A stretch of DNA of 64,000 nucleotides from Clostridia bacterium (GTDB taxonomy: Bacteria > Bacillota > Clostridia > Christensenellales > SZUA-584), in the NCBI GenBank assembly GCA_018648645.1, contig JABGQS010000005.1:24511-88510 (forward strand). The letters are read 5' to 3'. The notes beneath the pieces are model-generated. The model had not been told where the DNA came from, ran no database searches, and saw nothing but the letters and a program-made list of their open reading frames with translations. A program made the position numbers and the translations under genes. Shown here piece by piece: positions 11,984-61,948 of this stretch. How positions within the stretch are numbered: position 1 is the stretch's first letter; every line of letters begins with the position of its first letter.

Positions 11984-12012
11984 ACGGCAGTGAGGGATCG
12001 CTGTCGTTTTTT
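11984..12012 (+). terminator. Rho-independent terminator after the DUF815 gene
   Basis: acggcag...ctgtcgt stem plus T6. The 5' arm 'acggcagtgagg' recurs at 12289. Confidence 0.65.
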
Positions 12013-12038
12013 GTTATAGAAAAATTATTCGATAGAAC

Positions 12039-12067
12039 TTGTGGTCGTGAATGTTTTATGGTATAAT
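12039..12067 (+). promoter_or_regulatory. Putative sigma-A promoter (extended -10)
   Basis: TTGTGG, 17-nt spacer, then TGgTATAAT, about 50 nt upstream of the small ORF. Confidence 0.45.
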
Positions 12068-12118
12068 TGTAATAATATGAAAACAGCACATAATAAACGA
12101 GAAGAAAGGAGAACGATT

Positions 12119-12268
12119 ATGGCAGTTAAGCACATTCCAACCAAAGAAGTTCATAAAGGCGTTAAAGGTGGAAAAACTGGTTGTGGTGTTGATACAACCA
12201 AACACCCTAGTCATTGGGTAAATACAAGTGCAAAAAAAACCTGTGATAAGAATGGATGTAAAAACTAA
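12119..12268 (+). CDS. Small Cys/His-containing protein of unknown family (49 aa)
   Basis: RBS aaggagaacgattATG. Sequence MAVKHIPTKEVHKGVKGGKTGCGVDTTKHPSHWVNTSAKKTCDKNGCKN. It is about 69% identical to the N-terminus of the next gene. Confidence 0.55.
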   Translation: MAVKHIPTKEVHKGVKGGKTGCGVDTTKHPSHWVNTSAKKTCDKNGCKN

Positions 12269-12288
12269 AAATCAGTAATAAAGATAAA

Positions 12289-12314
12289 ACGGCAGTGAGG
12301 AACATTGTCGTTTT
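12289..12314 (+). terminator. Rho-independent terminator (weaker copy)
   Basis: acggcag/ttgtcgt stem with G-U pairs followed by TTTT. Related to the terminator at 11984. Confidence 0.45.
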
Positions 12315-12405
12315 ATCTGCTAAAATTTTTTGGTTAGAAAGAAGGACACGAAGTTTAGTGCTATTATTGAAATAAATAGCAAGTATTATGGAAAGGAGAA
12401 AGATT

Positions 12406-13125
12406 ATGGCAGTTAAACATACACCAACAGGTATAGTTCACAGCGGTAAAAAAGGCGGCAAAACAGGGTGCGGAATAGATACCAGAGAGAAGATTAGTCA
12501 CTGGGTAAAGACTAACGAGAAAATAACCTGTGATCAGAATGGTTGTAAAAATAAGAAGAACAATATGAAGAACAATAAGAAGAAAAATAAATTGCTCATT
12601 AAAACATATGAGTTGATTGTGTTTGTTATTTTACTAGTAGTAAGCTCAGTAGCTACATTTGTTTTGGAGGATAAAAACTGTAGGATTTTTCAAGCCTTAG
12701 CTATAGGCGTTTTTTCTTCTACAATAGTTGCTATACTAATATATGTTACTACGATAATTCGAGAAAGAGAAGTGCTAAAGCAAGCTAGAAAAGATATTCT
12801 GTTAAACTTTATTAGAGATGAGATTGATTACATTCACAATATAAATTTAGAGTTAAAATTTTTTGAGAAACATGAAAGCAACTTTGTTGGCATAATAAGG
12901 GTAATTAAAAACAAACCAATATTCTATAAAAATATCTATGAATTAGCTAGCGAGAAAACGAAAGATGCAATTACTAATATAAATCTTAAAACCAATGAGA
13001 TCATACTTGAATTAGAAGAACAGCCAAATGAGGATCAAATACAAAGCTTTACTTCTGATTTAGACGAGTTGATGTTGCCTTTAATAGCTTGTCGAAACGA
13101 AATTGAAAGTAGAAAACTTAACTAA
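12406..13125 (+). CDS. Membrane protein with N-terminal copy of the 49-aa Cys/His module
   Basis: RBS aaggagaaagattATG; the annotated ORF start at 12388 lies inside the RBS. The module is followed by a KNKKNNMKNNKKKNK linker, two hydrophobic helices (LIVFVILLVVSSVATFVL, ALAIGVFSSTIVAILIYVTTII) and a ~120-aa tail. Very AT-rich. Confidence 0.6.
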   Translation: MAVKHTPTGIVHSGKKGGKTGCGIDTREKISHWVKTNEKITCDQNGCKNKKNNMKNNKKKNKLLIKTYELIVFVILLVVSSVATFVLEDKNCRIFQALAIGVFSSTIVAILIYVTTIIREREVLKQARKDILLNFIRDEIDYIHNINLELKFFEKHESNFVGIIRVIKNKPIFYKNIYELASEKTKDAITNINLKTNEIILELEEQPNEDQIQSFTSDLDELMLPLIACRNEIESRKLN

Positions 13126-13295
13126 TTTTATAACTTGGGATATCACGTACCTGCATAGTAGTCTTCTATTTGTTTTTCTCTTACCCAAAAACCCACTCTT
13201 TATTTTTCCCCCACGATACGCTATAATAATCTATGAATATGAAGCATGGAAGAACGGTAGCTTTTTTTTGTGCAAAAACATAAAGGGAGACGCAA

Positions 13296-14588
13296 ATGAT
13301 TTGGAACGAAGGAATCGAGTGCGCATCGCGAGAGAAGATAGAAGCGATACAGCTCGAGCGGCTTAGAAGCACGGTAGAAAACTGTTATAACAACGTGCCG
13401 CATTATAAGAAAAAGCTTGACGCAGCGGGCGTGAAACCAGGCGACTTTAAGACGCTTGCTGACATTACGAAAATTCCGTTTACAGAAAAGGACGACCTGC
13501 GAGCCAACTATCCGTACAAGCTGTTTGCGGTGCCGATGAAAGATGTCGTGCGCATTCACGCGTCGTCGGGCACAACGGGCAAACCAACGGTGGTCGGATA
13601 CACGCAGAACGATTTGGATATGTGGGCAGAGGTTGTGGCACGGCTGGCTTGCGCGGCGGGTGCAACGAGCGAGGACATCGCGCAGATTTCGTTTGGGTAC
13701 ACGCTGTTCACCGGCGCGTTTGGGCTGCACTATGGGCTAGAGAAACTGGGTGCGACGATTATTCCGATATCGGGCGGCAACACAGACCGCCAAATCAACG
13801 TGATGGAGGACTTTGGCACAACGCTGCTGGTCAGCACGCCAAGCTACGCGCTCTATCTTGCCGAGGTCGCGAAAAAGAAGGGCATCGACACCAAGAAGCT
13901 TCCGCTCAAAATCGGCATGTTTGGCGGCGAAGGGCACACAGAGCAAATGCGTGCACAGATAGAAAAGGAGCTCGACATCATCGCGACAGAGAACTACGGG
14001 CTGTCCGAGATTATCGGACCCGGCACCAGCGGCGAGTGTACGGTCAAAGACGGTATGCACATTGCCGAAGACCATTTTTACTGCGAGATTGTAGACAAAG
14101 ACACACTAGAGCCTGTGCCATATGGCGAGCCGGGCGAGATGGTCATCACGTCGCTGAGCAAAGAAGCGCTGCCGATATTGCGCTATCGCACCAAGGACAT
14201 CACGTGGCTGATTCCCGAGAAGTGCAAATGTGGCAGAACGTCGATGCGCATGGCAAAGATACAAGGGCGCACAGACGATATGCTTATCATCCGCGGGGTC
14301 AACGTGTTCCCGTCGCAGATCGAAGGCGTGCTGCTCGATGTCGAGGGCATTGGTCCGCACTACGAGATTATCGTCAAGAAAGACGGTGTGATGGACAAGA
14401 TCGAAGTCATGGTAGAGCTTGTTGACGCAAGCTTGTTAGAGAGCTTCAGCGCACTCGAAGAGATAGAGAAAAAAATTAAACACGATTTGTTTACCATACT
14501 TAACATAAGCGCGGACGTGCATCTGGCAGAGCCGGAATCGCTAAAGCGTTTTGAAGGTAAGGCACAAAGAGTGACAGATTTACGATAA
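13296..14588 (+). CDS. paaK: Phenylacetate-CoA ligase family protein
   Basis: 430 aa with '[17 protein letters not shown]', 'YGLSEIIGPG' and a C-terminal 'GKAQRVTDLR'. Confidence 0.9.
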   Translation: MIWNEGIECASREKIEAIQLERLRSTVENCYNNVPHYKKKLDAAGVKPGDFKTLADITKIPFTEKDDLRANYPYKLFAVPMKDVVRIHASSGTTGKPTVVGYTQNDLDMWAEVVARLACAAGATSEDIAQISFGYTLFTGAFGLHYGLEKLGATIIPISGGNTDRQINVMEDFGTTLLVSTPSYALYLAEVAKKKGIDTKKLPLKIGMFGGEGHTEQMRAQIEKELDIIATENYGLSEIIGPGTSGECTVKDGMHIAEDHFYCEIVDKDTLEPVPYGEPGEMVITSLSKEALPILRYRTKDITWLIPEKCKCGRTSMRMAKIQGRTDDMLIIRGVNVFPSQIEGVLLDVEGIGPHYEIIVKKDGVMDKIEVMVELVDASLLESFSALEEIEKKIKHDLFTILNISADVHLAEPESLKRFEGKAQRVTDLR

Positions 14589-14602
14589 AGAGGGAGAAAC
14601 CA

Positions 14603-16333
14603 ATGACAAAGAAACTAATGCTGGGAAACGCGGCTTTTGCAAGGGGCGCGTGGGAAGCAGGCGCGACAGTAGCGGCTGCATACCCGGGAACACCAAGCAC
14701 AGAAATCACAGAGAACGTGGCAACATACGACGAGATACTTGCGCAGTGGGCGCCTAACGAGAAGGTCGCGCTAGAGGTCGCTATCGGCGCATCGTTCGGC
14801 GGCGCACGGGCGCTTTGTGCCATGAAGCACGTCGGGCTAAACGTAGCGGCAGATCCGCTTTTCACAGCGGCGTACACGGGCGTCAACGGCGGTCTGGTTA
14901 TCGTCGTGGCGGACGATCCCGGAATGAACTCGAGCCAAAACGAGCAGGACTCGCGGTTCTATGCGAGAAGCGCGCACGTGCCGATGCTCGAGCCAAGCGA
15001 CAGCCATGAAGCCAAAGAATTCGTCAAAGCGGCGTTCGAGCTGAGCGAGAAATATGACACTCCGGTGTTTGTGCGTTCAAACACTCGCTTGTCACATTCG
15101 CAAGGCGTTGTAGAGCTGATGGAGCGAGCTGACGTTGCGCTAAAGCCATACGTCAAAGACATTCCAAAGTACGTGATGATGCCGGGCATGGCTCGCAAAC
15201 GTCACGTTATCGTAGAGCAGCGCATGAACGATATCAAAGAGTTTGCGAACTCGACCGAGCTTAACAAGGTCGAGATGAACGATACAGCAATTGGCGTAAT
15301 TACTGCCGGCGTAACGTACAACGACGTTAAGGAAGCACTGCCGAACGCGAGCGTTCTAAAGCTCGGCATGATATATCCGCTTCCCGCAAAAACAATTGCG
15401 GACTTTGCAGCCAAAGTAGACAAGCTGTACATCGTGGAAGAGCTGGAGCCGTTCTTCGAAGACGCTATCAAAGCGATGGGTATCGACATCATCGGTAAAG
15501 AGATTTTCACACTGCAAGGCGAATACAGCGCGAACATGATTGCAAAAGGCATTTTGGGCAAGCAAATTGACAGCAGAGACGCAGGCGTTTTGCCGATGCG
15601 ACCTCCTGTTATGTGTCCGGGATGTCCACACAGAGCGGTCTATCACGTGCTGAAAAAGCTGAAGATTATGGCAACGGGCGACATCGGGTGCTACACGCTT
15701 GGCGCATTGCCACCGCACGAGGGCATCGACATGTGCGTTTGCATGGGCGCAAGCATCAGCATGGCGACAGGGCTGGAGAAAGCACGCGGCAAGGACTTTG
15801 CTCGAAAGCTAGTCGCTGTTATCGGAGACTCGACGTTCTTCCATTCTGGTATCACAGGTTTGGTGGACATGGTATACAACGGCGCGACATCAACAGTGAT
15901 GATACTCGACAACTCGACCACCGGAATGACAGGGCATCAAGATCATCCGTCTACAGGCAAAAACCTGAAAGGCGACGTTGCGGCGGTCATAGACATCGAA
16001 ACGCTGGTGCGTGGGCTTGGCGTAAAGAACGTGCGCACAGTGGACCCGTTCGACATGAAAGCGCTCGAAGTGATATTGAAGGAAGAAACGGCGAGGGAAG
16101 AAGTCAGCGTGATTATCACGCAGCGACCTTGCGCTCTGTTGCCGCAAGTACCTGTTCTGCCCGCGCTCCATATTAACGATACGTGCACGAGCTGCGGTAT
16201 GTGCATGAAGCTAGGCTGCCCGGCTATCGAGCGGCACGAGAACGGCATGTGGATAAACGAAACGCTTTGCAACGGCTGCGGACTTTGCGTAAAGGTGTGC
16301 AAGTTCGATTCGATAAAAAAGGCGGGTGAGTAA
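14603..16333 (+). CDS. iorA: Indolepyruvate:ferredoxin oxidoreductase alpha subunit
   Basis: 576 aa with TPP-binding 'GDIGCYTLG...GDSTFFHSG' and a C-terminal 2x[4Fe-4S] 'CTSCGMCMKLGCP...CNGCGLCVKVC'. Confidence 0.9.
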   Translation: MTKKLMLGNAAFARGAWEAGATVAAAYPGTPSTEITENVATYDEILAQWAPNEKVALEVAIGASFGGARALCAMKHVGLNVAADPLFTAAYTGVNGGLVIVVADDPGMNSSQNEQDSRFYARSAHVPMLEPSDSHEAKEFVKAAFELSEKYDTPVFVRSNTRLSHSQGVVELMERADVALKPYVKDIPKYVMMPGMARKRHVIVEQRMNDIKEFANSTELNKVEMNDTAIGVITAGVTYNDVKEALPNASVLKLGMIYPLPAKTIADFAAKVDKLYIVEELEPFFEDAIKAMGIDIIGKEIFTLQGEYSANMIAKGILGKQIDSRDAGVLPMRPPVMCPGCPHRAVYHVLKKLKIMATGDIGCYTLGALPPHEGIDMCVCMGASISMATGLEKARGKDFARKLVAVIGDSTFFHSGITGLVDMVYNGATSTVMILDNSTTGMTGHQDHPSTGKNLKGDVAAVIDIETLVRGLGVKNVRTVDPFDMKALEVILKEETAREEVSVIITQRPCALLPQVPVLPALHINDTCTSCGMCMKLGCPAIERHENGMWINETLCNGCGLCVKVCKFDSIKKAGE

Positions 16334-16335
16334 CT

Positions 16336-16917
16336 ATGACTAATCAAAACAGCAAAGATATTTTAATCGTGGGTGTGGGCGGACAAGGCACGCTTCTGGC
16401 AAGCAGAATACTCGGCAACCTCGCAATATCGCAAGGGCACGATGTAAAGCTGTCCGAAGTACACGGAATGGCACAGCGCGGCGGCAGCGTGGTTACGCAT
16501 GTTCGTTATGGCAGCAAGGTTTTTGCGCCGACAGTCGATGCAGGCAGCGCAGACATCATCATTGCTTTTGAGAAACTCGAAGCGCTGCGTTGGATTGGCA
16601 AATTGAAACCAAACGGCAAAATGTTTGTCAATACGCAAGAAATTGCGCCGATGCCGGTCGTCACGGGCGCAGTAGCGTACCCAAGTGACATCGAAGGTAC
16701 AATTGCAAACGAAGTACCCGGCACCGTTTTCGTAGACGCGCTGTCGATGGCAAAGCAGGCAGGCAACGCCAAAGCGGTAAATACAGTGCTGATTGGCGTG
16801 CTGGCAAAGCACATGGACATCGACAAACAAGCATTTTTGGACGCGATCAAGGCGACTGTGCCTGAGCGATTCCTAGACATAAACATCATCGCGTTCGAAA
16901 AAGGATATAACAGCTAG
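16336..16917 (+). CDS. iorB: Indolepyruvate:ferredoxin oxidoreductase beta subunit
   Basis: 193 aa with 'IVGVGGQGTLLASRILG' and 'SEVHGMAQRGGSV'. Starts 2 nt after the iorA stop. Confidence 0.9.
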   Translation: MTNQNSKDILIVGVGGQGTLLASRILGNLAISQGHDVKLSEVHGMAQRGGSVVTHVRYGSKVFAPTVDAGSADIIIAFEKLEALRWIGKLKPNGKMFVNTQEIAPMPVVTGAVAYPSDIEGTIANEVPGTVFVDALSMAKQAGNAKAVNTVLIGVLAKHMDIDKQAFLDAIKATVPERFLDINIIAFEKGYNS

Positions 16918-16932
16918 AGATAGGAGAGAGCT

Positions 16933-18225
16933 ATGATTTGGAATCAGAAAATCGAGTGTATGGACAGAGAGCAGTTGTCGGTTCTGCAAACAGAAAAGCT
17001 GCGCAAGACAGCGCAAAAGGTGTACGAGAACGTGCCTTTCTATAAGCAAGCATTTGACGAGCTTGGCGTAAAGCCGGATGACATCAAGTCACTCGACGAT
17101 TTGCAAAGCCTGCCGTTCACAGTAAAAAGCGATTTGCGCGACCACTATCCGTTTGGGCTGTTCAGCGCAAAATCGGAAGACATCGTGCGGCTGCACGCGT
17201 CTTCGGGCACAACGGGCAAACCGACGGTTGTCGGCTACACCGCGCGCGATATCAAAAACTGGGGAGACCTGATGGCGCGAAGCTTTGCGTTTGCAGGCGG
17301 CAATAAGAACTCGGTGATACAAGTGGCGTACGGCTATGGGCTGTTTACAGGAGGTCTTGGCGCGCACTATGGCGCAGAAGCGCTTGGCGCAACCACGATA
17401 CCGATTTCGGGAGGCAACACAAAACGCCAAATCATGCTGATGCAGGACTTTGGCACAACGATTATCGCGGCGACACCTTCGTACATGCTGTTTATGGCAG
17501 AGACTATGGAAGAGATGGGCGTTGATCCAAAATCGCTAAAGCTGGAGGCGGGCGTGTTTGGCGCAGAGCCTTGGACAGAAGCGATGCGTACAGAGATCGA
17601 GCAGCGCTTTGGCATTCTCGCCATCGATATATACGGACTATCCGAAATCATGGGACCGGGTGTGGCGAGCGATTGCGAGTGCAAGTGCGGTCTGCACATC
17701 TCCGAAGACTTCTTCCTGCCCGAGATTATCGATCCGGTGACGCTAAAGCCGCTGCCATACGGGAGCGAGGGCGAGCTTGTTTTCACAACCATCGACAAAG
17801 ACGGCATTCCGCTGATACGATACAGAACGCGCGACATCACCTCGCTTAACGCAGACACTTGCGAGTGCGGCAGAACGATGGTGCGAATGCAAAAGGTATT
17901 GGGGCGCAGCGACGATATGCTGATTATCCGCGGTGTCAATGTGTTCCCGTCACAAATCGAAGGCGTGTTGATGGACATAGCGGGCGTATCTCCGCACTAC
18001 CAAATCGTCGTAGACCGTGCCCACAATTTCGACAGACTCGAAGTGCAGGTAGAGGTGGAAGGCAGCTTGTTTAGCGACGAGGTCAGGCGACTTGAGGAGC
18101 TTCGCGCAAAGATTCAAGCAGATATACAAACAGTGCTCGGCATAAATGTGAAAGTATCGCTGGTCGAGCCTAAGACGATTGAGCGAAGCATGGGCAAAGC
18201 AAAAAGAGTGATTGATAACCGCTAA
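16933..18225 (+). CDS. paaK: Phenylacetate-CoA ligase family protein (second paralogue)
   Basis: 430 aa, colinear with the 13296 copy ('[17 protein letters not shown]', '[10 protein letters not shown]', '[10 protein letters not shown]'). Confidence 0.9.
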
Positions 18226-55325: not shown

Positions 55326-55356
55326 TAAGGGCGCGGTCTATAAAACGCGCCTTTAT
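55326..55356. terminator. Bidirectional hairpin between converging genes
   Basis: taagggcgcg/cgcgccttta stem flanked by A/T runs. Confidence 0.6.
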
Positions 55357-56432
55357 TATTCCATCTCTGTCTCACTAACCGGCTTCTCGGGGTCGGTCGG
55401 GTCCCATCTCGGATACTCTTCATCTATCGCAATTTTTTCGATATGGTCAACCAAATCACTGCTCAACACCACTTCTATAACTGTGCCTGCCGGGCACTCA
55501 AAGTATACGAACTTGGCAGCTTCCACAGTTGTACGTATGCACCCGCTTGTAGCGGACGATCCGATTGAATTGTACGATTTATATAAAAGCGTATCGAACT
55601 TCTTGCTCCGGTATATCGGTCCGTGGATATACACGCCGCTTGTATACTTCGTGTAGTACGGAGAATACTGCGAGCTGTTCCATCGCTTCCAAGGTCCTTT
55701 GCTGCTAATCTCGAAAACCCCAAGCGCGGTCATTCTGGCCGACCTGCCAACTGCGCATGGGAAAGCGGCAACCAACTTTGTGTACTGACCATTCTCGTCG
55801 TATGTGAACACCGCCATTGTATAGTCCTCTTTATCAACGATAATGTAATACTTATTTTGAAGCGGCGTGTTGTCGCTGGCCAGCGCATCCATGCTGACAA
55901 CTTTTTGATATTGCGAGCTCAAAAGTACATCGTCCGCAATTCCATCCTCGCCCATATCCTCAAAGCTGAGAAGAAGGATGCTGCCACGGCGTATGTTTGA
56001 GATAGACCACGAGTCAATATCGGGCCAAAGAATATCTTTAAAGTAGACAACATCGTTTTCGTCAAGCGCATACAGCACATTATAATCTGCTGATTCAACG
56101 ATATCCCAATCAGCGGTAAGCGAATCGTAACTGATGTTATATTCCAGTGTTCCGTTTTGCAGGGTTAAGTCGCCGAGTTTAACTTCGGCCAGCTCGTTTG
56201 GTTCAGGTATATACGCCGGCTCGGGCGTTGCGATTGGCGTTTGCTCCGATGTTTGTGTTGGCTGCGGGGTTTGTGTTTCGGTTGGCACAGCGCTCGCGGC
56301 TGCCGGCTCATCAGTCGGCTCAGGGCTGCCCGTCCGGTTCGCCGGGTTGTTTATAGTCGCTAGAACGATAATTGCGACAATTACGACCAACGCAAGAAGT
56401 ATTTTTAATATAAGTGATTTGCGAGATTTCAT
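55356..56432 (-). CDS. L,D-transpeptidase (YkuD) family protein with N-terminal TM anchor
   Basis: ATG at 56432 after ggagag. TM helix, Pro/Thr/Glu-rich linker, and catalytic 'IHG......S.GSSATSGCIRT'. Confidence 0.8.
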   Translation of the reverse strand: MKSRKSLILKILLALVVIVAIIVLATINNPANRTGSPEPTDEPAAASAVPTETQTPQPTQTSEQTPIATPEPAYIPEPNELAEVKLGDLTLQNGTLEYNISYDSLTADWDIVESADYNVLYALDENDVVYFKDILWPDIDSWSISNIRRGSILLLSFEDMGEDGIADDVLLSSQYQKVVSMDALASDNTPLQNKYYIIVDKEDYTMAVFTYDENGQYTKLVAAFPCAVGRSARMTALGVFEISSKGPWKRWNSSQYSPYYTKYTSGVYIHGPIYRSKKFDTLLYKSYNSIGSSATSGCIRTTVEAAKFVYFECPAGTVIEVVLSSDLVDHIEKIAIDEEYPRWDPTDPEKPVSETEME

Positions 56433-56652
56433 AGGCAACTCTCCAGTTGAACTTTAAAATAAATTTTATCACACTCGGACAATTAATGCAATATAGAGGA
56501 CGCACATGAAGTGTAAATATTTAGCTATATGCAGTAAAACATACCTTATATTGTGCCATTATCTTGATAAAAGATGTTGGATATGCTATTATTGCAATGT
56601 CATTTGCACAAGGATATTTGATAAATAAATTAGAAGGTTTGCTATTAAAAAG

Positions 56653-58434
56653 ATGAATGAATTGCTTGCGTACCCATATGACCCGGAATTAATTCTAAAG
56701 CGCAAAAAGCGCATAAAAAAAGAGCTGCTGTCAAGCGGAGCTAACTTTACGGGCAAAAAAATCGCCATCCTGGGTGGTTCGACAACGCACGATATCGCAG
56801 CTTGTCTCGAGCTTTTTTTGCTTGATCACGGTATAAAACCTACCTTTTACGAAAGCGAATTCGGGCAGTATTGGCAGGACGCGATGTTTGGCAGCGAAAC
56901 GCTCGACAGCTTTGCTCCGGACGTTATTTATATTCACACAAGCTATCGAAATATCGCAGACTTCCCAACAATCAACGACTCAGAGCAGGAAATCGACGAT
57001 ATACTCATTGAACAATACCGTCACTTTACAGACATGTGGGCGACTCTGCGCGGCAAATTTCACTGCACCATCATACAAAACAACTTCGAGATGCCGTTTT
57101 TCCGGCTGCTTGGGAACAAAGACGCAAGCGACCCGCACGGCAGAACAAACTATCTAAGTCGTCTTAACAGCATGTTCTACGAGTATGCAAACAGCACGGA
57201 CGACTTTTACATCAACGACATCAACTACTTATCAGCCAGCTACGGTCTGCAAAAATGGTCAGACACTTTCTTTTGGCACATGTACAAGTACAGCTTAGCG
57301 GTTCCGGCGATACCACACCTCGCGCACAACATCGCGAACATAATCAAATCGCTCTACGGCAAAAACAAAAAGTCGCTGGTGCTGGATCTCGACAACACGC
57401 TTTGGGGCGGAGTTGTGGGTGACGACGGTGTGCAGGGCATCCAAATCGGGCACGAAACACCGATGGGGCAGGTCTACAGCGAGTTCCAAGAGTATGCAAA
57501 AGCGCACAAGGATCTCGGCGTGCTGCTGTGTGTCAATTCTAAAAACGACCACGAAAACGCGATGGAGGGATTGAATCACCCCGAAGGAACATTGAAGCCG
57601 GACGACTTTATCGTCATCAAAGCTAACTGGGAAAACAAGGACCAAAACATTGTTGACATCGCAAACGAGCTGAACATTCTGCCCGAGAGCTTGGTGTTTA
57701 TCGATGACAACCCTGTCGAGCGCGAAATCGTAAAGGCGCAGGTGGACGGCGTCAATGTACCGAGTGTCGGCAGCGTTGAAACGTTCATTAATATAATCGA
57801 CAAATCGGGTTTCTTCGAAGTGACAAACTTCTCTGACGATGACAAGGGCAGAAACGATATGTACGTCGCAAACGCAAAGCGAGCTGCGCTAAACAAAACA
57901 TATGAGAACTACGAGGATTATCTAAGCTCGCTCGAGATGAGCGCGACGATTGCTGATTTCGAAACTATATACGTGCCGCGGATAACGCAGTTGACAAACA
58001 AGTCGAACCAGTTTAACCTAACGACAAAGCGGTACTCTCAAAGCGAGATTGAAAGCGTTATGGACGGCGACAACTACATAGGTCTATACGGTAAATTGAG
58101 TGACAAATTCGGCGACAACGGGCTTGTGTCCATCGTGATTGGCAGGGTGCAGGAAACAGCGCTGCACATCGAACTTTGGCTGATGAGCTGCCGCGTGCTA
58201 AAGCGGAACATGGAAGACGCGATGATGGACGAGCTAATCTGCCGAGCGAAGCAGCGCGGCATCGAGACGATAATCGGATACTACTACAAAACTGCAAAAA
58301 ACAACATGGTAAGCTCCTTCTACGAGCGCTTTGGGTTTGCCAAAACAAGCGAAAACGAGAACGGTGACTCGGCTTGGGAGCTTAGTATAAAGGACTATAC
58401 CAATAAAAACAATGTGATTAAGGTGGAAAGCTGA
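56653..58434 (+). CDS. FkbH-like HAD-IIIC family protein (predicted glyceryl-ACP-forming loader)
   Basis: 593 aa. The N-terminal domain has 'KIAILGGSTT'. The HAD core has 'LVLDLDNTLWGGVVGDDG' (DxDxT), 'CVNSKN' and 'FIDDNPVE'. The C-terminal GNAT-like domain has 'WLMSCRVLKR' (candidate acyl-Cys). Confidence 0.8.
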   Translation: MNELLAYPYDPELILKRKKRIKKELLSSGANFTGKKIAILGGSTTHDIAACLELFLLDHGIKPTFYESEFGQYWQDAMFGSETLDSFAPDVIYIHTSYRNIADFPTINDSEQEIDDILIEQYRHFTDMWATLRGKFHCTIIQNNFEMPFFRLLGNKDASDPHGRTNYLSRLNSMFYEYANSTDDFYINDINYLSASYGLQKWSDTFFWHMYKYSLAVPAIPHLAHNIANIIKSLYGKNKKSLVLDLDNTLWGGVVGDDGVQGIQIGHETPMGQVYSEFQEYAKAHKDLGVLLCVNSKNDHENAMEGLNHPEGTLKPDDFIVIKANWENKDQNIVDIANELNILPESLVFIDDNPVEREIVKAQVDGVNVPSVGSVETFINIIDKSGFFEVTNFSDDDKGRNDMYVANAKRAALNKTYENYEDYLSSLEMSATIADFETIYVPRITQLTNKSNQFNLTTKRYSQSEIESVMDGDNYIGLYGKLSDKFGDNGLVSIVIGRVQETALHIELWLMSCRVLKRNMEDAMMDELICRAKQRGIETIIGYYYKTAKNNMVSSFYERFGFAKTSENENGDSAWELSIKDYTNKNNVIKVES

Positions 58435-58435
58435 T

Positions 58436-58678
58436 ATGACAAGAGAGAAGGTAACAGGCGAAGTTCAAAACATTTTCAGAGACTTGTTTGACGATGAGTC
58501 GATTGTTATAGATGACAACACGACTGCAGACGATGTCGAGGATTGGGATTCACTCGAGCACATCAATTTAATCACCTCCATAGAAAAGCATTTTAGCATT
58601 AAGTTTGCAATGAGCGAAGTCACACACTTCAAGAATGTCGGCAACATGATAGACACCATCACAACAAAGGTATCCTGA
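58436..58678 (+). CDS. Acyl carrier protein (DltC-like size)
   Basis: 80 aa, acidic. 'DVEDWDSLEHINLITSIE' carries the phosphopantetheine Ser context (DSL). Starts 1 nt after the upstream stop. Confidence 0.8.
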   Translation: MTREKVTGEVQNIFRDLFDDESIVIDDNTTADDVEDWDSLEHINLITSIEKHFSIKFAMSEVTHFKNVGNMIDTITTKVS

Positions 58679-58706
58679 CTAAGCATAACAAAAGCAAGGA
58701 GGAGTC

Positions 58707-60125
58707 ATGACTTTTACAACGTTATATTTTCTTGTGTTTGTTGCCGTAGTCGTCTTGGTATACCTTCTTTTGCCGCAAAAGATCAAACCGCATTTCATTA
58801 TACTCGCCAGCTTGGTTTTCTACTTCTTCTGGAAAGCATGGGCGCCGGTTTTCATAATCGCATTCGCGCTGTTCAACTTCGTCATGGCAAAGGTTCTCGC
58901 AAAACAAAAAAGCAAAAAGTTCTTTGTGCTACTGATGAGCGTCAGTCTCAGTGTGATTCTGTTCTTCGTTTTCCGCTATGGCATCTTTAACGGCATCATC
59001 GCCGCGATTACGGGCGGCAACACCATCATGATACTTTTCCCGCTTGGGTTCTCGTACTACATGTTCAAGTGCGTCAGCTACTTGATCGACGTGAACAACG
59101 GCACAATTGCGCCTGAGCCGCGCTTCGATTACTTTCTGATATACGTGACATATTTCCCGGAGGTTTCGATGGGACCCATCACACGCGCAGTCGATTTTTT
59201 GCCGCAGATTCGCATAAAAAAAGTCATCGACACGACAGCGCTCAACAAAGGGCTTGCGCTGGTTGCGTGGGGGTTTTTCAAAAAAATTGTGTTTGCAGAC
59301 ATGCTGGCGAGCATGATAAATCCGTACTACAACGATTTAACTCTGTCGAATAACGGATTTGCATGGTTCTTCGTTGCGTTTGGCTTCCTGCTCCAGCTCT
59401 ATCTCGACTTTTCAGCGTACACCAACATATCCATCGGCGTCTCCAAGATGCTCGGCTACGACATCAAGCCGAACTTTAACGCGCCGTTTTTCTCGCAGAG
59501 CATATCCGAGTTTTGGCGCAAATGGCACATCAGCTTGTCAAGCTGGCTAGCGGACTACGTGTTTACTCCGCTCCAGTTTTTACTGCGTCGCCTAGGCAAA
59601 TTTGCTTCAATCATCCCCGCGCTTATTACATTCACGCTAATCGGCGTTTGGCACGGCGGCACGTCGTCATACCTCGTCTTTGGTTTCTCGATGGGCGTGC
59701 TCGTCGCCATCGACGCGATTGTTGCAAGGAAGCGCAAAAAGCTCAAGAAGACACTGCCGAAATCGTTGTTTAGCACAGTCGGCATAATCATAACCATGCT
59801 GCTCAACATATTGGTGTTCGTCTTTATGCGCACGGGTGTAGCAGCGGACGGGTTTGCAATCATCGACAAGATTTTCAGCTTTTCGACATGGTCGCTACAG
59901 CTAGGCTTTGGGTTAGAGTTCTTTATCATATTTGCGCTGTCGATAGCTGTCGCGATATGCTCGCACATTATCGAGAGCAGAAAAGACAAGTTTTTGGACG
60001 GCTTTGCGCGGCTAAAATTGCCGGTGACATGGCTGGTGTACCTAGTTGTAATTTTCGCAATCGTACTGTTTGGATACTACGGCCCCGGATACGACGCAAT
60101 CGAATTTATATACATCGGATTCTAG
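58707..60125 (+). CDS. MBOAT family O-acyltransferase (DltB/AlgI-like)
   Basis: 472 aa polytopic protein. 'FWRKWHISLSSWLADYVFTPL' contains the conserved MBOAT His. RBS aaggagga. Confidence 0.88.
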   Translation: MTFTTLYFLVFVAVVVLVYLLLPQKIKPHFIILASLVFYFFWKAWAPVFIIAFALFNFVMAKVLAKQKSKKFFVLLMSVSLSVILFFVFRYGIFNGIIAAITGGNTIMILFPLGFSYYMFKCVSYLIDVNNGTIAPEPRFDYFLIYVTYFPEVSMGPITRAVDFLPQIRIKKVIDTTALNKGLALVAWGFFKKIVFADMLASMINPYYNDLTLSNNGFAWFFVAFGFLLQLYLDFSAYTNISIGVSKMLGYDIKPNFNAPFFSQSISEFWRKWHISLSSWLADYVFTPLQFLLRRLGKFASIIPALITFTLIGVWHGGTSSYLVFGFSMGVLVAIDAIVARKRKKLKKTLPKSLFSTVGIIITMLLNILVFVFMRTGVAADGFAIIDKIFSFSTWSLQLGFGLEFFIIFALSIAVAICSHIIESRKDKFLDGFARLKLPVTWLVYLVVIFAIVLFGYYGPGYDAIEFIYIGF

Positions 60126-60139
60126 AAGGAGGGATGAGC

Positions 60140-61204
60140 ATGAAAAAATTATTCTTTGCAGTTAAACTCGTTGTTTTTGTCGCGATTTTTGTAGTGCTGC
60201 TCGTCTTCGCATCCTATATCGTCCGCCCGCAAAGCGACATGAAAACGCGCTTCACCGGCTTTTACGCAGAGCCAAAGGACAGCATAGACGTTATAGTTAT
60301 CGGATCAAGCCCCGTAGCGCCGCTGTATGCCGCTCCGCTGATATGGAATGAGTTCGGTATCACTCTGTACCCTCTTGGAACAAACTCGCAGCCAACTGTC
60401 GGCATCAAATATCTTGTCAAGGAAGCGCAGAAACGGCAGGGCAGCAGCTTGTTCGTCATCGACGTGTCGTTGTTTATGGTAGAGCCGCAAAGCCTGCTAA
60501 CCGAGCCGAACATCCGCAACATCGTCGACAACATGACGTATTCGCTAAACAGAATTGGGGCAATCAACGAGATGGTGCAGATCCCCGGCGAGCGCATAAA
60601 CTATTATTTTGACATCAGCAAATATCATTCTGTGCTGCGCGATGGCGAGCTAAGCGCAGCGTCTTTCAAAGACTTCGATTTCGCTGTACCGTCGGTTTAC
60701 AAAGGGTATTTCTTTGTGGACGCGGTCGAGCCGTTTGACCCGGTCGATGTTTCGGGTATAACTGAAACAAAACCGATCCCCGATGAATCAGAGCAGATTC
60801 TGCTCGACTTGATGGCATATTGCGAGTCGGAACAATTGGACGTGATGTTTGTAATCGCGCCGTATATCACAAGCGATGAGCGCAAAATGTCGCACAACTA
60901 TCTGCAAGCGCTTATTGAAAGCCACGGCTACACCTTCATCGATTTTAACGACAAAGCCGGCGAATTTGGCATCGACTATTCGACCGATTTATATAACAGA
61001 AACCATCTCAACCTAAGCGGGGCCGAAAAGTTCTCGATGTACTTTGGTGCATATTTGGCGGACACATACGACTTTGCCGACAATCGAGGCAGCGCGGACT
61101 ACACCTCTTGGGATGATGCATACGCTGCATGGGAGACTCAGGCAGCTATCGCCCGAGAAAAAATCGCAGAAAACGCAGAGCGGCTGAGCAACATCAGCAG
61201 ATAG
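60140..61204 (+). CDS. DltD/AlgJ-like SGNH-fold protein with N-terminal membrane anchor
   Basis: Start MKKLFFAVKLVVFVAIFVVLLVF 8 nt after aaggaggg. 'DVIVIGSSPV' is a candidate nucleophile Ser. The C-terminal 'DLYNRNHLNLSG' resembles the D...HL..G block of DltD-type proteins. Confidence 0.6.
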   Translation: MKKLFFAVKLVVFVAIFVVLLVFASYIVRPQSDMKTRFTGFYAEPKDSIDVIVIGSSPVAPLYAAPLIWNEFGITLYPLGTNSQPTVGIKYLVKEAQKRQGSSLFVIDVSLFMVEPQSLLTEPNIRNIVDNMTYSLNRIGAINEMVQIPGERINYYFDISKYHSVLRDGELSAASFKDFDFAVPSVYKGYFFVDAVEPFDPVDVSGITETKPIPDESEQILLDLMAYCESEQLDVMFVIAPYITSDERKMSHNYLQALIESHGYTFIDFNDKAGEFGIDYSTDLYNRNHLNLSGAEKFSMYFGAYLADTYDFADNRGSADYTSWDDAYAAWETQAAIAREKIAENAERLSNISR

Positions 61205-61351: not shown

Positions 61352-61948
61352 ATGAAAAAGATTAGTATCGTTATAGTGATTGTAATGCTGGCAGCGGTTT
61401 TTACCGGTTGCGGAGCGCCCGCGCCAACGGTAACGCAGGACAATACTGCCAATGAGGAAGCTCCGATAGATGAAGCTGTGGAAGAAACACAGGAAGAGGA
61501 TTTTGGTCCGTTTAACGAAAACGACCTCACCTTTGTTCACGAGGGAGTGCAGTACCCAATCAGCACGCCCGCGAAGCCGCTGCTCGATTTGTTCGGCACC
61601 GACTTTGAGGAAATCGTCGCACCAAGCTGCTCGTTTGTCGGCGAGGATAAACAGTTCATATACGACTTTGCAACCGTATACACCTATCCGATGGACGGTG
61701 TTGATTTAATCAACGAAGTATACATCTATGGCGGCGACTTTGTCACAGGTCGCGGCATTGCCCTAGGCGATACGCTGGAAATGGTAATCGAGGCATACGG
61801 CGAGGGCGGCTTCGAGGACGGCGAAAGCTACGTTTACGCTGTTGGCGGTGACCCGGATGACGCGACAAGCCCGCGATTGTACTTTGATATAACAGACGGA
61901 GTTGTGTCGGGCATCAGCTACTTTGGCGCAAACGGCATTGTGCTCTAG
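61352..61948 (+). CDS. Lipoprotein of unknown function
   Basis: Start MKKISIVIVIVMLAAVFTGCG (lipobox FTGC) after gtaggag. Acidic linker followed by a ~150-aa domain. Confidence 0.7.
   Translation: MKKISIVIVIVMLAAVFTGCGAPAPTVTQDNTANEEAPIDEAVEETQEEDFGPFNENDLTFVHEGVQYPISTPAKPLLDLFGTDFEEIVAPSCSFVGEDKQFIYDFATVYTYPMDGVDLINEVYIYGGDFVTGRGIALGDTLEMVIEAYGEGGFEDGESYVYAVGGDPDDATSPRLYFDITDGVVSGISYFGANGIVL

Follow-up and report, generated by a model that had tools for sequence, protein, structure and literature searches.

A carrier-protein-dependent MBOAT-SGNH cluster with an FkbH-type loader, predicted to acylate the cell envelope of a Clostridia bacterium

Analysis of a 64-kb stretch of a Clostridia bacterium genome (contig JABGQS010000005.1; hereafter the window, by which we mean all 64,000 nucleotides analysed) revealed a cluster of four genes encoding an FkbH-like protein, a small carrier protein, a membrane-bound O-acyltransferase (MBOAT) as well as a fourth protein, here designated P4. 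From the domain assignments, a structural model of P4 and the behaviour of analogous systems, we judge that the cluster probably encodes a carrier-protein-dependent MBOAT-SGNH system, which O-acylates an envelope polymer from outside the membrane. Its logic is that of known MBOAT-SGNH acylation and the cluster is, therefore, not a new category; our verdict is that it constitutes a real, uncharacterised variant of MBOAT-SGNH envelope acylation. An earlier note on this DNA had proposed that the export logic of DltC, DltB and DltD is kept here, with an FkbH-type loader in place of DltA. The presence of a carrier, an MBOAT and an SGNH partner supports this, whereas the shuttle step differs from that of Dlt: there is no DltX, and the acyl shuttle is fused to the MBOAT in the manner of PatA and AlgI.

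Organisation of the cluster

The four genes are co-directional and separated by gaps of 1, 28 and 14 nt, a spacing that suggests a single operon. The open reading frames (ORFs) and their positions are as the earlier note gave them, and the motifs cited there were all recovered, among them the serine of the acidic 80-residue carrier protein and the conserved histidine of the MBOAT. The genes and their key residues, in coordinates of the window, are as follows:

56653-58434, forward strand: FkbH-like gene, 593 amino acids (aa)
57382-57411, forward strand: HAD motif I, LDLDNTLWGG, aa 244-253 of the FkbH-like protein (Asp245, Asp247 and Thr249), invariant relative to canonical short FkbH proteins
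58183-58200, forward strand: MSCRVL, aa 511-516 of the FkbH-like protein, with Cys513 as candidate acyl-S-enzyme cysteine (alignment)
58436-58678, forward strand: carrier-protein gene, 80 aa
58544-58561, forward strand: WDSLEH, aa 37-42 of the carrier, with Ser39 as phosphopantetheine attachment site (PP-binding match and alignment)
58707-60125, forward strand: MBOAT gene, 472 aa
59514-59546, forward strand: WRKWHISLSSW, aa 270-280 of the MBOAT, with catalytic His274, aligned with the histidine region of DltB
60105-60122, forward strand: FIYIGF, the last six residues of the MBOAT, an FxYxxF acyl-shuttle motif with Tyr469
60140-61204, forward strand: P4 gene, 354 aa, with its ATG at 60140
within 60140-61204, forward strand: candidate catalytic residues of P4, namely Ser57, Gly73, Asn131, Asp283 and His289 (alignment and model), with the motifs IGSSP (aa 54-58) and DLYNRNHLNLSG (aa 283-294)

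The mechanical ORF list begins the fourth ORF at 59888 (59888-61204), 252 nt further 5', where it overlaps the MBOAT gene in another frame. Since an AGGAGG sequence stands 8 nt ahead of the ATG at 60140 and the homologues of the fourth protein start with MKK, we place the start at this ATG; the extension 59888-60139 was rejected as an artefact of ORF calling rather than part of a longer protein. Counted from 60134, the candidate residues of P4 are S59, G75, N133, D285 and H291. The arrangement of the four genes is no chance juxtaposition, because their order is kept in relatives down to approximately 40% identity of the fourth protein.

The loader and its carrier protein

The FkbH-like protein, which we refer to as the loader, scores above the cutoff of the FkbH domain model (TIGR01686, 282 bits against 146.65, residues 239-564) and also matches the HAD-IIIC model (TIGR01681, 71 bits) and FkbH_N (PF21211, 49.5 bits, aa 36-232). 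Its domain order is an N-terminal FkbH_N, a HAD-IIIC phosphatase and a C-terminal cysteine-bearing domain. With 593 aa against the approximately 340-370 aa of canonical FkbH and OzmB proteins, it represents a long form, whose additional 235 residues at the N-terminus are similar to the structural-genomics protein BF1531 (PDB 3slr), the match extending over residues 21-395 of the loader (E 6e-50). Such proteins are numerous, with more than 8000 homologues and identities of 61-72% among the 120 matches listed.

Residues 236-593 of the loader were aligned with two canonical short FkbH proteins, from Streptomyces canus and Bacillus thuringiensis. The former is encoded between an acyl-CoA dehydrogenase, an acyl carrier protein (ACP) and a 3-hydroxyacyl-CoA dehydrogenase, in a hydroxymalonyl-ACP cassette (locus L009), and the latter within a cluster for nonribosomal peptide and polyketide synthesis, which we take to be the zwittermicin cluster. 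The HAD-IIIC motifs D245/D247/T249, S296, K329 and D351/D352 are invariant in this alignment, and Cys513 of the MSCRV motif is the only cysteine that is invariant across long-form and canonical proteins. The catalytic residues expected of an FkbH or OzmB enzyme are, therefore, retained, and the earlier assignment to the FkbH family stands with its motifs intact, amended in that the protein is a long form with an additional N-terminal domain.

In characterised assembly lines, reviews describe the conversion of 1,3-bisphosphoglycerate to a phosphoglyceryl-S-enzyme, then to a glyceryl-S-enzyme and finally to glyceryl-ACP, and the phosphoglyceryl-S-OzmB and glyceryl-S-OzmB intermediates have been described (PMC9057759). 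By analogy, the use of an FkbH protein in the place of DltA has direct precedent in these assembly lines, and what is known of the family leads us to infer that the loader would take 1,3-bisphosphoglycerate as its substrate and yield a glyceryl-S-carrier product.

The carrier is encoded by a stand-alone gene, which begins 1 nt past the loader stop codon. It is an acidic protein that exceeds the cutoff of the PP-binding domain (25.2 bits against 20.8); searches of NCBIfam returned ACP models below threshold only, and no DltC model was matched. Ser39 is the sole residue, besides Met1, that is invariant in an alignment with carriers from related loci.

The MBOAT and its C-terminal motif

The MBOAT matches PF03062 with 79 bits, and the histidine pointed out earlier is His274 of its WRKWH motif. 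Its sole NCBIfam match is the DltB model TIGR04091, at 174 bits under an equivalog cutoff of 375, and its best sequence matches in the PDB are likewise to DltB (6bug and 8jem, E 1e-25, residues 99-363). Beyond the part that aligns with DltB there are two more hydrophobic segments (395-425 and 432-462), followed by the terminal FIYIGF.

This ending is significant in view of a recent report (PMC12148441, 2025), according to which the acyl group in Dlt systems passes via the invariant tyrosine of an FxYxxF motif on the microprotein DltX, while PatA and other non-Dlt MBOATs bear the same motif fused C-terminally on two extra helices. Of 53 MBOATs from related loci, 49 have an FxYxxF motif at the C-terminus or no more than two residues from it; in the intergenic region upstream of the cluster (56400-56700), no small ORF ending in FxYxxF, and hence no DltX, was found. 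Since FIYIGF is fused to the MBOAT and DltX is lacking, the cluster appears to be a hybrid of a Dlt-like carrier donor and a Pat/Alg-like fused shuttle. The same report states that a carrier protein is absent from the non-Dlt MBOAT/SGNH pathways, a generalisation which this locus appears to contradict, as it joins a predicted carrier-protein donor with a fused shuttle.

The fourth protein

In contrast to the other three genes, which profile searches assign, P4 has no significant match by sequence in Pfam, NCBIfam or the PDB, and a profile of 43 homologues fails to reach the DltD chains in the PDB. An AlphaFold2 (AF2) model built from the alignment of these 43 homologues (mean pLDDT 95.3) shows an N-terminal transmembrane helix, preceded by Lys-Lys, and then an alpha/beta domain. 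Foldseek comparison of this model with the PDB returned DltD structures first (3bma, 6pfx and 7dxm, E 3e-5 to 2e-3, probability 1.0), followed by GDSL/SGNH esterases of a generic kind and by PatB, an O-acetyltransferase of peptidoglycan. The conserved positions of the family comprise a serine directly after the first strand (IGSS), replaced by cysteine in distant members, an invariant glycine, the asparagine of a DN pair, and an invariant aspartate and histidine near the C-terminus; these are compatible with a catalytic site of the SGNH type.

On the strength of the model, then, P4 is predicted to be a membrane-anchored, DltD-like SGNH-fold protein. It had previously been called DltD/AlgJ-like; DltD does come closest in fold, but by sequence P4 does not fall within the DltD family. 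P4 belongs to a large family, which at E <= 1e-3 comprises 12,756 cluster representatives and has next to no annotation.

Conservation of the set and variant clusters

The four-gene set is found in metagenome-assembled genomes (MAGs) of Christensenellaceae and related Clostridia at 56-72% identity. In two Christensenellaceae MAGs the four genes (66-74% identity) are flanked by genes for a YkuD-type L,D-transpeptidase and a lipoprotein, as in the window, and in two other Clostridia MAGs (L013 and L015) all six genes are retained in a changed order. In Butyrivibrio, Eisenbergiella-like and many other Lachnospiraceae genomes the set lies inside glycan loci, where its neighbours are glycosyltransferases, asparagine-synthase-like amidotransferases and NeuB, and where a VOC-family gene is often added. 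Co-conservation of the four genes across Christensenellaceae, Lachnospiraceae and other Clostridia loci, on which the earlier proposal depended, is thus observed.

Linkage was counted in 80 genome loci found with P4, for which a 27-sequence subset of the P4 family was used, the full 43-sequence alignment being too diverse, and in 80 metagenome loci found with the long FkbH protein. The MBOAT gene lies immediately upstream of P4 in 38 of the 80 genome loci, an adjacent carrier gene is present in every one of the 36 MBOAT-P4 pairs with enough upstream DNA, and the full set including FkbH occurs in 26 of the 80. Among the metagenome loci (48-65% identity, mostly from gut and rumen), a carrier is found in approximately 55 of 80 and an MBOAT nearby in approximately 45 of 80.

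Clusters with a different loader are particularly informative. In two metagenome loci (L003 3762-9749 and L004 2140-8127), a racemase (TIGR00035, above cutoff), a DltA-like adenylase and a 75-aa DltC-like carrier are followed by an MBOAT ending in FIYSQF, a P4-like protein and a homologue of the lipoprotein of the window. The P4 relatives in these clusters are the most distant (~26% identity). In gene content this cluster resembles a Dlt-like system whose cargo would be some D-amino acid, though not alanine, and whose shuttle is fused. Since two unrelated types of loader share one back end, that back end appears to be a carrier-protein acyl exporter whatever the loader may be, and at the level of gene content this exchange of loaders is the strongest comparative argument for an acyl-export cluster in which FkbH would act as loader.

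The FkbH-carrier-MBOAT triad also extends to Alphaproteobacteria, as it is present on pSymB of Sinorhizobium meliloti (CP140948.1; L010 3201-9089) with a different fourth gene. This cluster comprises a VOC gene, an MBOAT ending in FLYQGF, a 409-aa protein, an ACP and a 628-aa long FkbH; it lies near capsule genes, and approximately 40 S. meliloti plasmid records were matched. The 409-aa protein, annotated as a TonB-dependent receptor, has no match in Pfam or NCBIfam.

Several further arrangements were observed. A VOC/glyoxalase-family gene accompanies the FkbH-carrier pair at L001 6050-6454, at L010 3201-3668 and in approximately 20 other related loci; it matches methylmalonyl-CoA epimerase best, though at 47 bits and thus under the cutoff, and its product may act as an epimerase at the 2-position of a hydroxyacyl thioester on the carrier. 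This gene is absent from the cluster in the window. In L096 (2415-9063), the order is MBOAT, an SGNH protein of DHHW/AlgX-like type that begins with a zinc ribbon, long FkbH and ACP; owing to this partner, the FkbH loader can be said to pair with at least two unrelated SGNH families. A long FkbH that is 62% identical to the window protein, present on at least 41 contigs, is followed in L006 (7001-10410) and L007 (1329-4738) by a multi-pass protein of 531 aa (precomputed PF27792, 'CHIM_prot') in the place of carrier and MBOAT, within a glycan locus that also encodes DUF6044, DUF6020 and an AT3 acyltransferase. In L120 (6986-11270) and L128 (6986-11272), the long FkbH directly precedes a 370-aa protein that lacks annotation, an MBOAT of 454 aa comes next, and no carrier gene intervenes; a carrier-independent hand-over, or a carrier encoded elsewhere, is a possibility in these loci. 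Finally, P4 is also encoded on its own (among loci L016-L090), in the order amidotransferase, GT4 glycosyltransferase, P4 and amidotransferase, the amidotransferases being asparagine-synthase-like (for example L076 5803-11959 and L038 5903-11985).

Neighbouring genes and the remainder of the window

The cluster is bordered by the following features:

55356-56432, reverse strand: YkuD-type L,D-transpeptidase, divergent neighbour (PF03734, 58.9 bits)
56564-56592, forward strand: promoter-like site TTGATA-17-TATTAT with an extended -10 TG, 60 nt 5' of the first gene (consensus match only)
61352-61948, forward strand: lipoprotein, 198 aa, lipobox FTGC, co-conserved with the cluster

The divergent L,D-transpeptidase upstream and the lipoprotein downstream had both been noticed before, and both identifications were confirmed. 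A YkuD homologue lies no more than ~2.5 kb from the cluster in L002, L011, L012, L013 and L015, in two arrangements, and the lipoprotein stands beside the cluster in all six related loci with enough flanking sequence (L002, L011-L013, L015 and L003/L004). An AF2 model of the lipoprotein (pLDDT 82) gave weak matches to small beta-rich folds of the BLIP, YjgB and YfeY kind, without a functional lead. The lipoprotein carries an invariant SC.F.G.DKQ stretch and has 28 detectable homologues, of which all those with examined context lie beside such clusters. The promoter-like site is weak evidence, since scans of the region for promoters and terminators gave counts no better than those in shuffled sequence.

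Elsewhere in the 64-kb window, no gene for a polyketide synthase (PKS), a nonribosomal peptide synthetase (NRPS), a FabH-like enzyme, an FkbK/FkbI-type dehydrogenase or an O-methyltransferase was found, the neighbours being housekeeping genes. No AMP-binding (DltA) gene lies in or beside the cluster; two are present more than 38 kb away, at 13296-14588 and 16933-18225. These encode paralogous 430-aa AMP-binding proteins (AMP-binding_C_2) that flank a thiamine pyrophosphate (TPP)/ferredoxin oxidoreductase gene (13296-18225); we read the pair as phenylacetate-CoA-ligase-like, and the region presumably represents an aromatic 2-oxoacid fermentation module. The minimum GC content of the window, 0.396, falls at 12001-14000.

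Comparison with known systems

The resemblance to Dlt is extensive. In Dlt, and by prediction in the cluster, a small carrier hands a phosphopantetheine thioester on to an MBOAT, and a membrane-anchored SGNH-fold, DltD-like protein serves as the final transferase; both have an FxYxxF acyl-tyrosine shuttle motif and genes in a compact operon. Furthermore, no characterised relative scores better with the MBOAT of the window than DltB does. The cluster differs, however, in that DltA is replaced by a HAD enzyme of the FkbH type, which needs no ATP, and in that the shuttle is carried on the two extra hydrophobic segments of the MBOAT rather than on DltX. At 174 bits against a cutoff of 375, the MBOAT is a relative and not an equivalog of DltB; the carrier is likewise not an equivalog of DltC, and P4 lies outside the DltD family (PF04914) by sequence. 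The predicted cargo is a hydroxy acid, whereas that of Dlt is an amino acid.

With the PatA/PatB, AlgI/AlgJ/AlgX and WssH/WssI systems, the cluster shares the MBOAT histidine, an FxYxxF motif fused on extra transmembrane helices, a separate extracytoplasmic SGNH partner and, as predicted, cell-envelope polymers as targets. The PatA, AlgI and WssH types use acetyl-CoA and no carrier (PMC12148441), in contrast to the adjacent carrier gene and dedicated loader found here. With the glyceryl-ACP synthases FkbH, OzmB and Tmn16, the loader shares a TIGR01686 score above cutoff, the HAD-IIIC motifs, the invariant cysteine and a carrier encoded next door; it differs from them in its length and its FkbH_N domain, and the cluster in lacking the downstream dehydrogenases, methyltransferase, FabH-like enzyme and PKS. 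Moreover, the carrier of those systems feeds an assembly line, whereas that of the window is predicted to feed a membrane acyltransferase.

A link between an FkbH domain and a surface glycan is found in Campylobacter jejuni, where cj1302 is an FkbH-domain gene within the flagellin glycosylation locus. The flagellin glycan carries a substituent derived from glyceric acid (di-O-methylglyceric acid), and the locus encodes ACPs. There, in contrast to the scheme proposed here, the modification is made in the cytoplasm on a nucleotide-sugar or glycan, and we know of no MBOAT-SGNH export step for it.

Proposed mechanism and alternative explanations

If the cluster operates as its relatives do, the loader would take 1,3-bisphosphoglycerate to form a (phospho)glyceryl thioester on Cys513, as known for the family, the HAD site with Asp245 and Asp247 would strip the phosphate, and the glyceryl group would pass to the phosphopantetheine on Ser39 of the carrier without ATP-dependent adenylation. 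By analogy with DltB and PatA, His274 of the MBOAT would then transfer the acyl group from the carrier, at the cytoplasmic face, to Tyr469 of the extracytoplasmic FIYIGF. Finally, the anchored SGNH protein P4 would take the acyl group from Tyr469 onto Ser57, using Ser57 and His289, and esterify a hydroxyl of an extracellular acceptor. The glyceryl cargo and a polymeric acceptor are what we infer from this scheme. In Lachnospiraceae the acceptor is probably a glycan; in the present organism, a wall-associated polymer or peptidoglycan is hinted at, because the L,D-transpeptidase and the lipoprotein travel with the cluster.

A number of observations weigh against this interpretation. Over the shared part, the loader is only 27-29% identical to canonical FkbH proteins and, given this and its extra N-terminal domain, its substrate could differ. 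The Foldseek TM-scores between P4 and DltD are only ~0.4 and the 43-sequence profile, searched against the PDB, provides no sequence-level tie, so that the likeness is one of fold and not of family membership; the candidate aspartate, furthermore, lies 6 residues ahead of the histidine, which is not the usual DxxH spacing. In 36 of the 80 P4 loci there is no MBOAT, carrier or FkbH gene within 7-9 kb. P4 is, therefore, not strictly dependent on an adjacent MBOAT, and strict co-dependence of the two was rejected on account of these 36 P4-only glycan loci. Some long FkbH genes have no carrier gene (L006, L120 and L128), and some FkbH-carrier pairs sit among housekeeping genes. Lastly, we know of no glyceryl-esterified wall polymer from Clostridia.

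Some of these points bear on the cargo. That the same export machinery handles something other than plain glyceryl, such as a different acyl phosphate or a carrier-bound unit that before export undergoes epimerisation, methylation or dehydration to a lactyl or pyruvoyl group, is in our view somewhat unlikely. The unexplained N-terminal domain and low identity of the long form would allow for it, as would the VOC gene of many related loci with its sub-cutoff epimerase match, the FkbH-domain gene in the C. jejuni flagellin glycosylation locus and the occurrence of glyceric acid among the terms of the Cj1295 paper. Against this, the window has no tailoring gene between carrier and MBOAT, the three gaps being 1, 28 and 14 nt, the catalytic motifs of the glyceryl-loading family are all kept and, to our knowledge, 1,3-bisphosphoglycerate is the substrate of all FkbH enzymes and domains characterised to date. 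Rather less probable, to our minds, is that the acceptor is peptidoglycan, a glycolipid or the co-conserved lipoprotein instead of a polysaccharide or teichoic acid, or that the SGNH protein is mainly an esterase that removes groups. In this clade the genes that accompany the cluster do encode a YkuD L,D-transpeptidase and a lipoprotein and not glycosyltransferases, in the adenylase variant P4 is followed by a member of that lipoprotein family, and PatB, which acts on peptidoglycan, is among the fold matches of P4; the P4 genes and modules of Lachnospiraceae are, however, embedded in loci of glycosyltransferases and asparagine-synthase-like genes, and the fold of the lipoprotein offers no functional clue. 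As for an esterase, the pairing of an MBOAT with an SGNH protein is a signature of transferases (PMC12148441).

Two further explanations would detach the loader from the membrane proteins. The MBOAT and P4 might be an ordinary acetyl-CoA-dependent O-acetyltransferase of the PatA/PatB or AlgI/AlgJ type with the FkbH and carrier genes as unrelated neighbours, since a fused FxYxxF is typical of MBOATs that use acetyl-CoA and P4 is often found without FkbH or carrier. We consider this very unlikely: a carrier is adjacent in 36 of 36 MBOAT-P4 pairs, 26 of which have FkbH as well, the gaps of 1-28 nt suggest one operon, and the adenylase variant combines the same back end with a carrier of its own. 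To the proposition that FkbH and the carrier serve the synthesis of a polyketide, tetronate or nonribosomal peptide, for which they would furnish a unit made from glycerate, we give hardly any credence. This is the sole experimentally established role of FkbH proteins, yet the window contains no PKS, NRPS or extender-unit genes, and in many genomes the genes lie with those of an MBOAT and of an SGNH protein outside the cytoplasm. The housekeeping content of the window led us to reject a role in polyketide or tetronate synthesis.

Significance

Carrier-dependent O-acylation of an envelope polymer by an MBOAT-SGNH pair thus remains our preferred reading. Full-text searches, to which most papers in subscription journals are closed, turned up no account of FkbH combined with DltB, or of MBOAT-SGNH combined with an acyl carrier protein, in the sense meant here, and an earlier description of the FkbH/carrier/MBOAT combination may exist elsewhere. 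With no matching description in the literature so searched and no PKS or NRPS gene in the window, the view that no characterised pathway explains the cluster stands. In its broadest form, our proposal is that this is the first carrier-dependent MBOAT-SGNH pathway outside Dlt, with a loader that can be swapped (FkbH, or a racemase with an adenylase), and that the FkbH form installs a glyceryl (C3 hydroxyacyl) ester on the surface polymers of some rhizobia and of Firmicutes that abound in gut and rumen. We regard the chances of this wider proposal as evenly balanced.

Acyl decorations of the envelope, for example the D-alanine of teichoic acids and the acetate found on peptidoglycan, alginate and cellulose, govern resistance to antibiotics and lysozyme, recognition by phages and the immune system, and biofilm properties. 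Current models of MBOAT-SGNH systems include two donors, D-alanyl-DltC and acetyl-CoA. The locus predicts a third, a hydroxy acid drawn straight from glycolysis without ATP, held on a dedicated carrier and exported via an MBOAT to which the tyrosine shuttle is fused. Gellan is known from its chemistry to bear glycerate esters, for which we know of no assigned transferase. As the module is common in gut and rumen Lachnospiraceae and Christensenellaceae, and is also present on pSymB of S. meliloti, it could explain unassigned substituents on the surface glycans of commensals. Furthermore, its compact four-gene form provides a test case for how MBOATs choose between carrier-protein and CoA donors. 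If the proposal is true, it would reveal an unrecognised modification of the cell envelope together with its export route.

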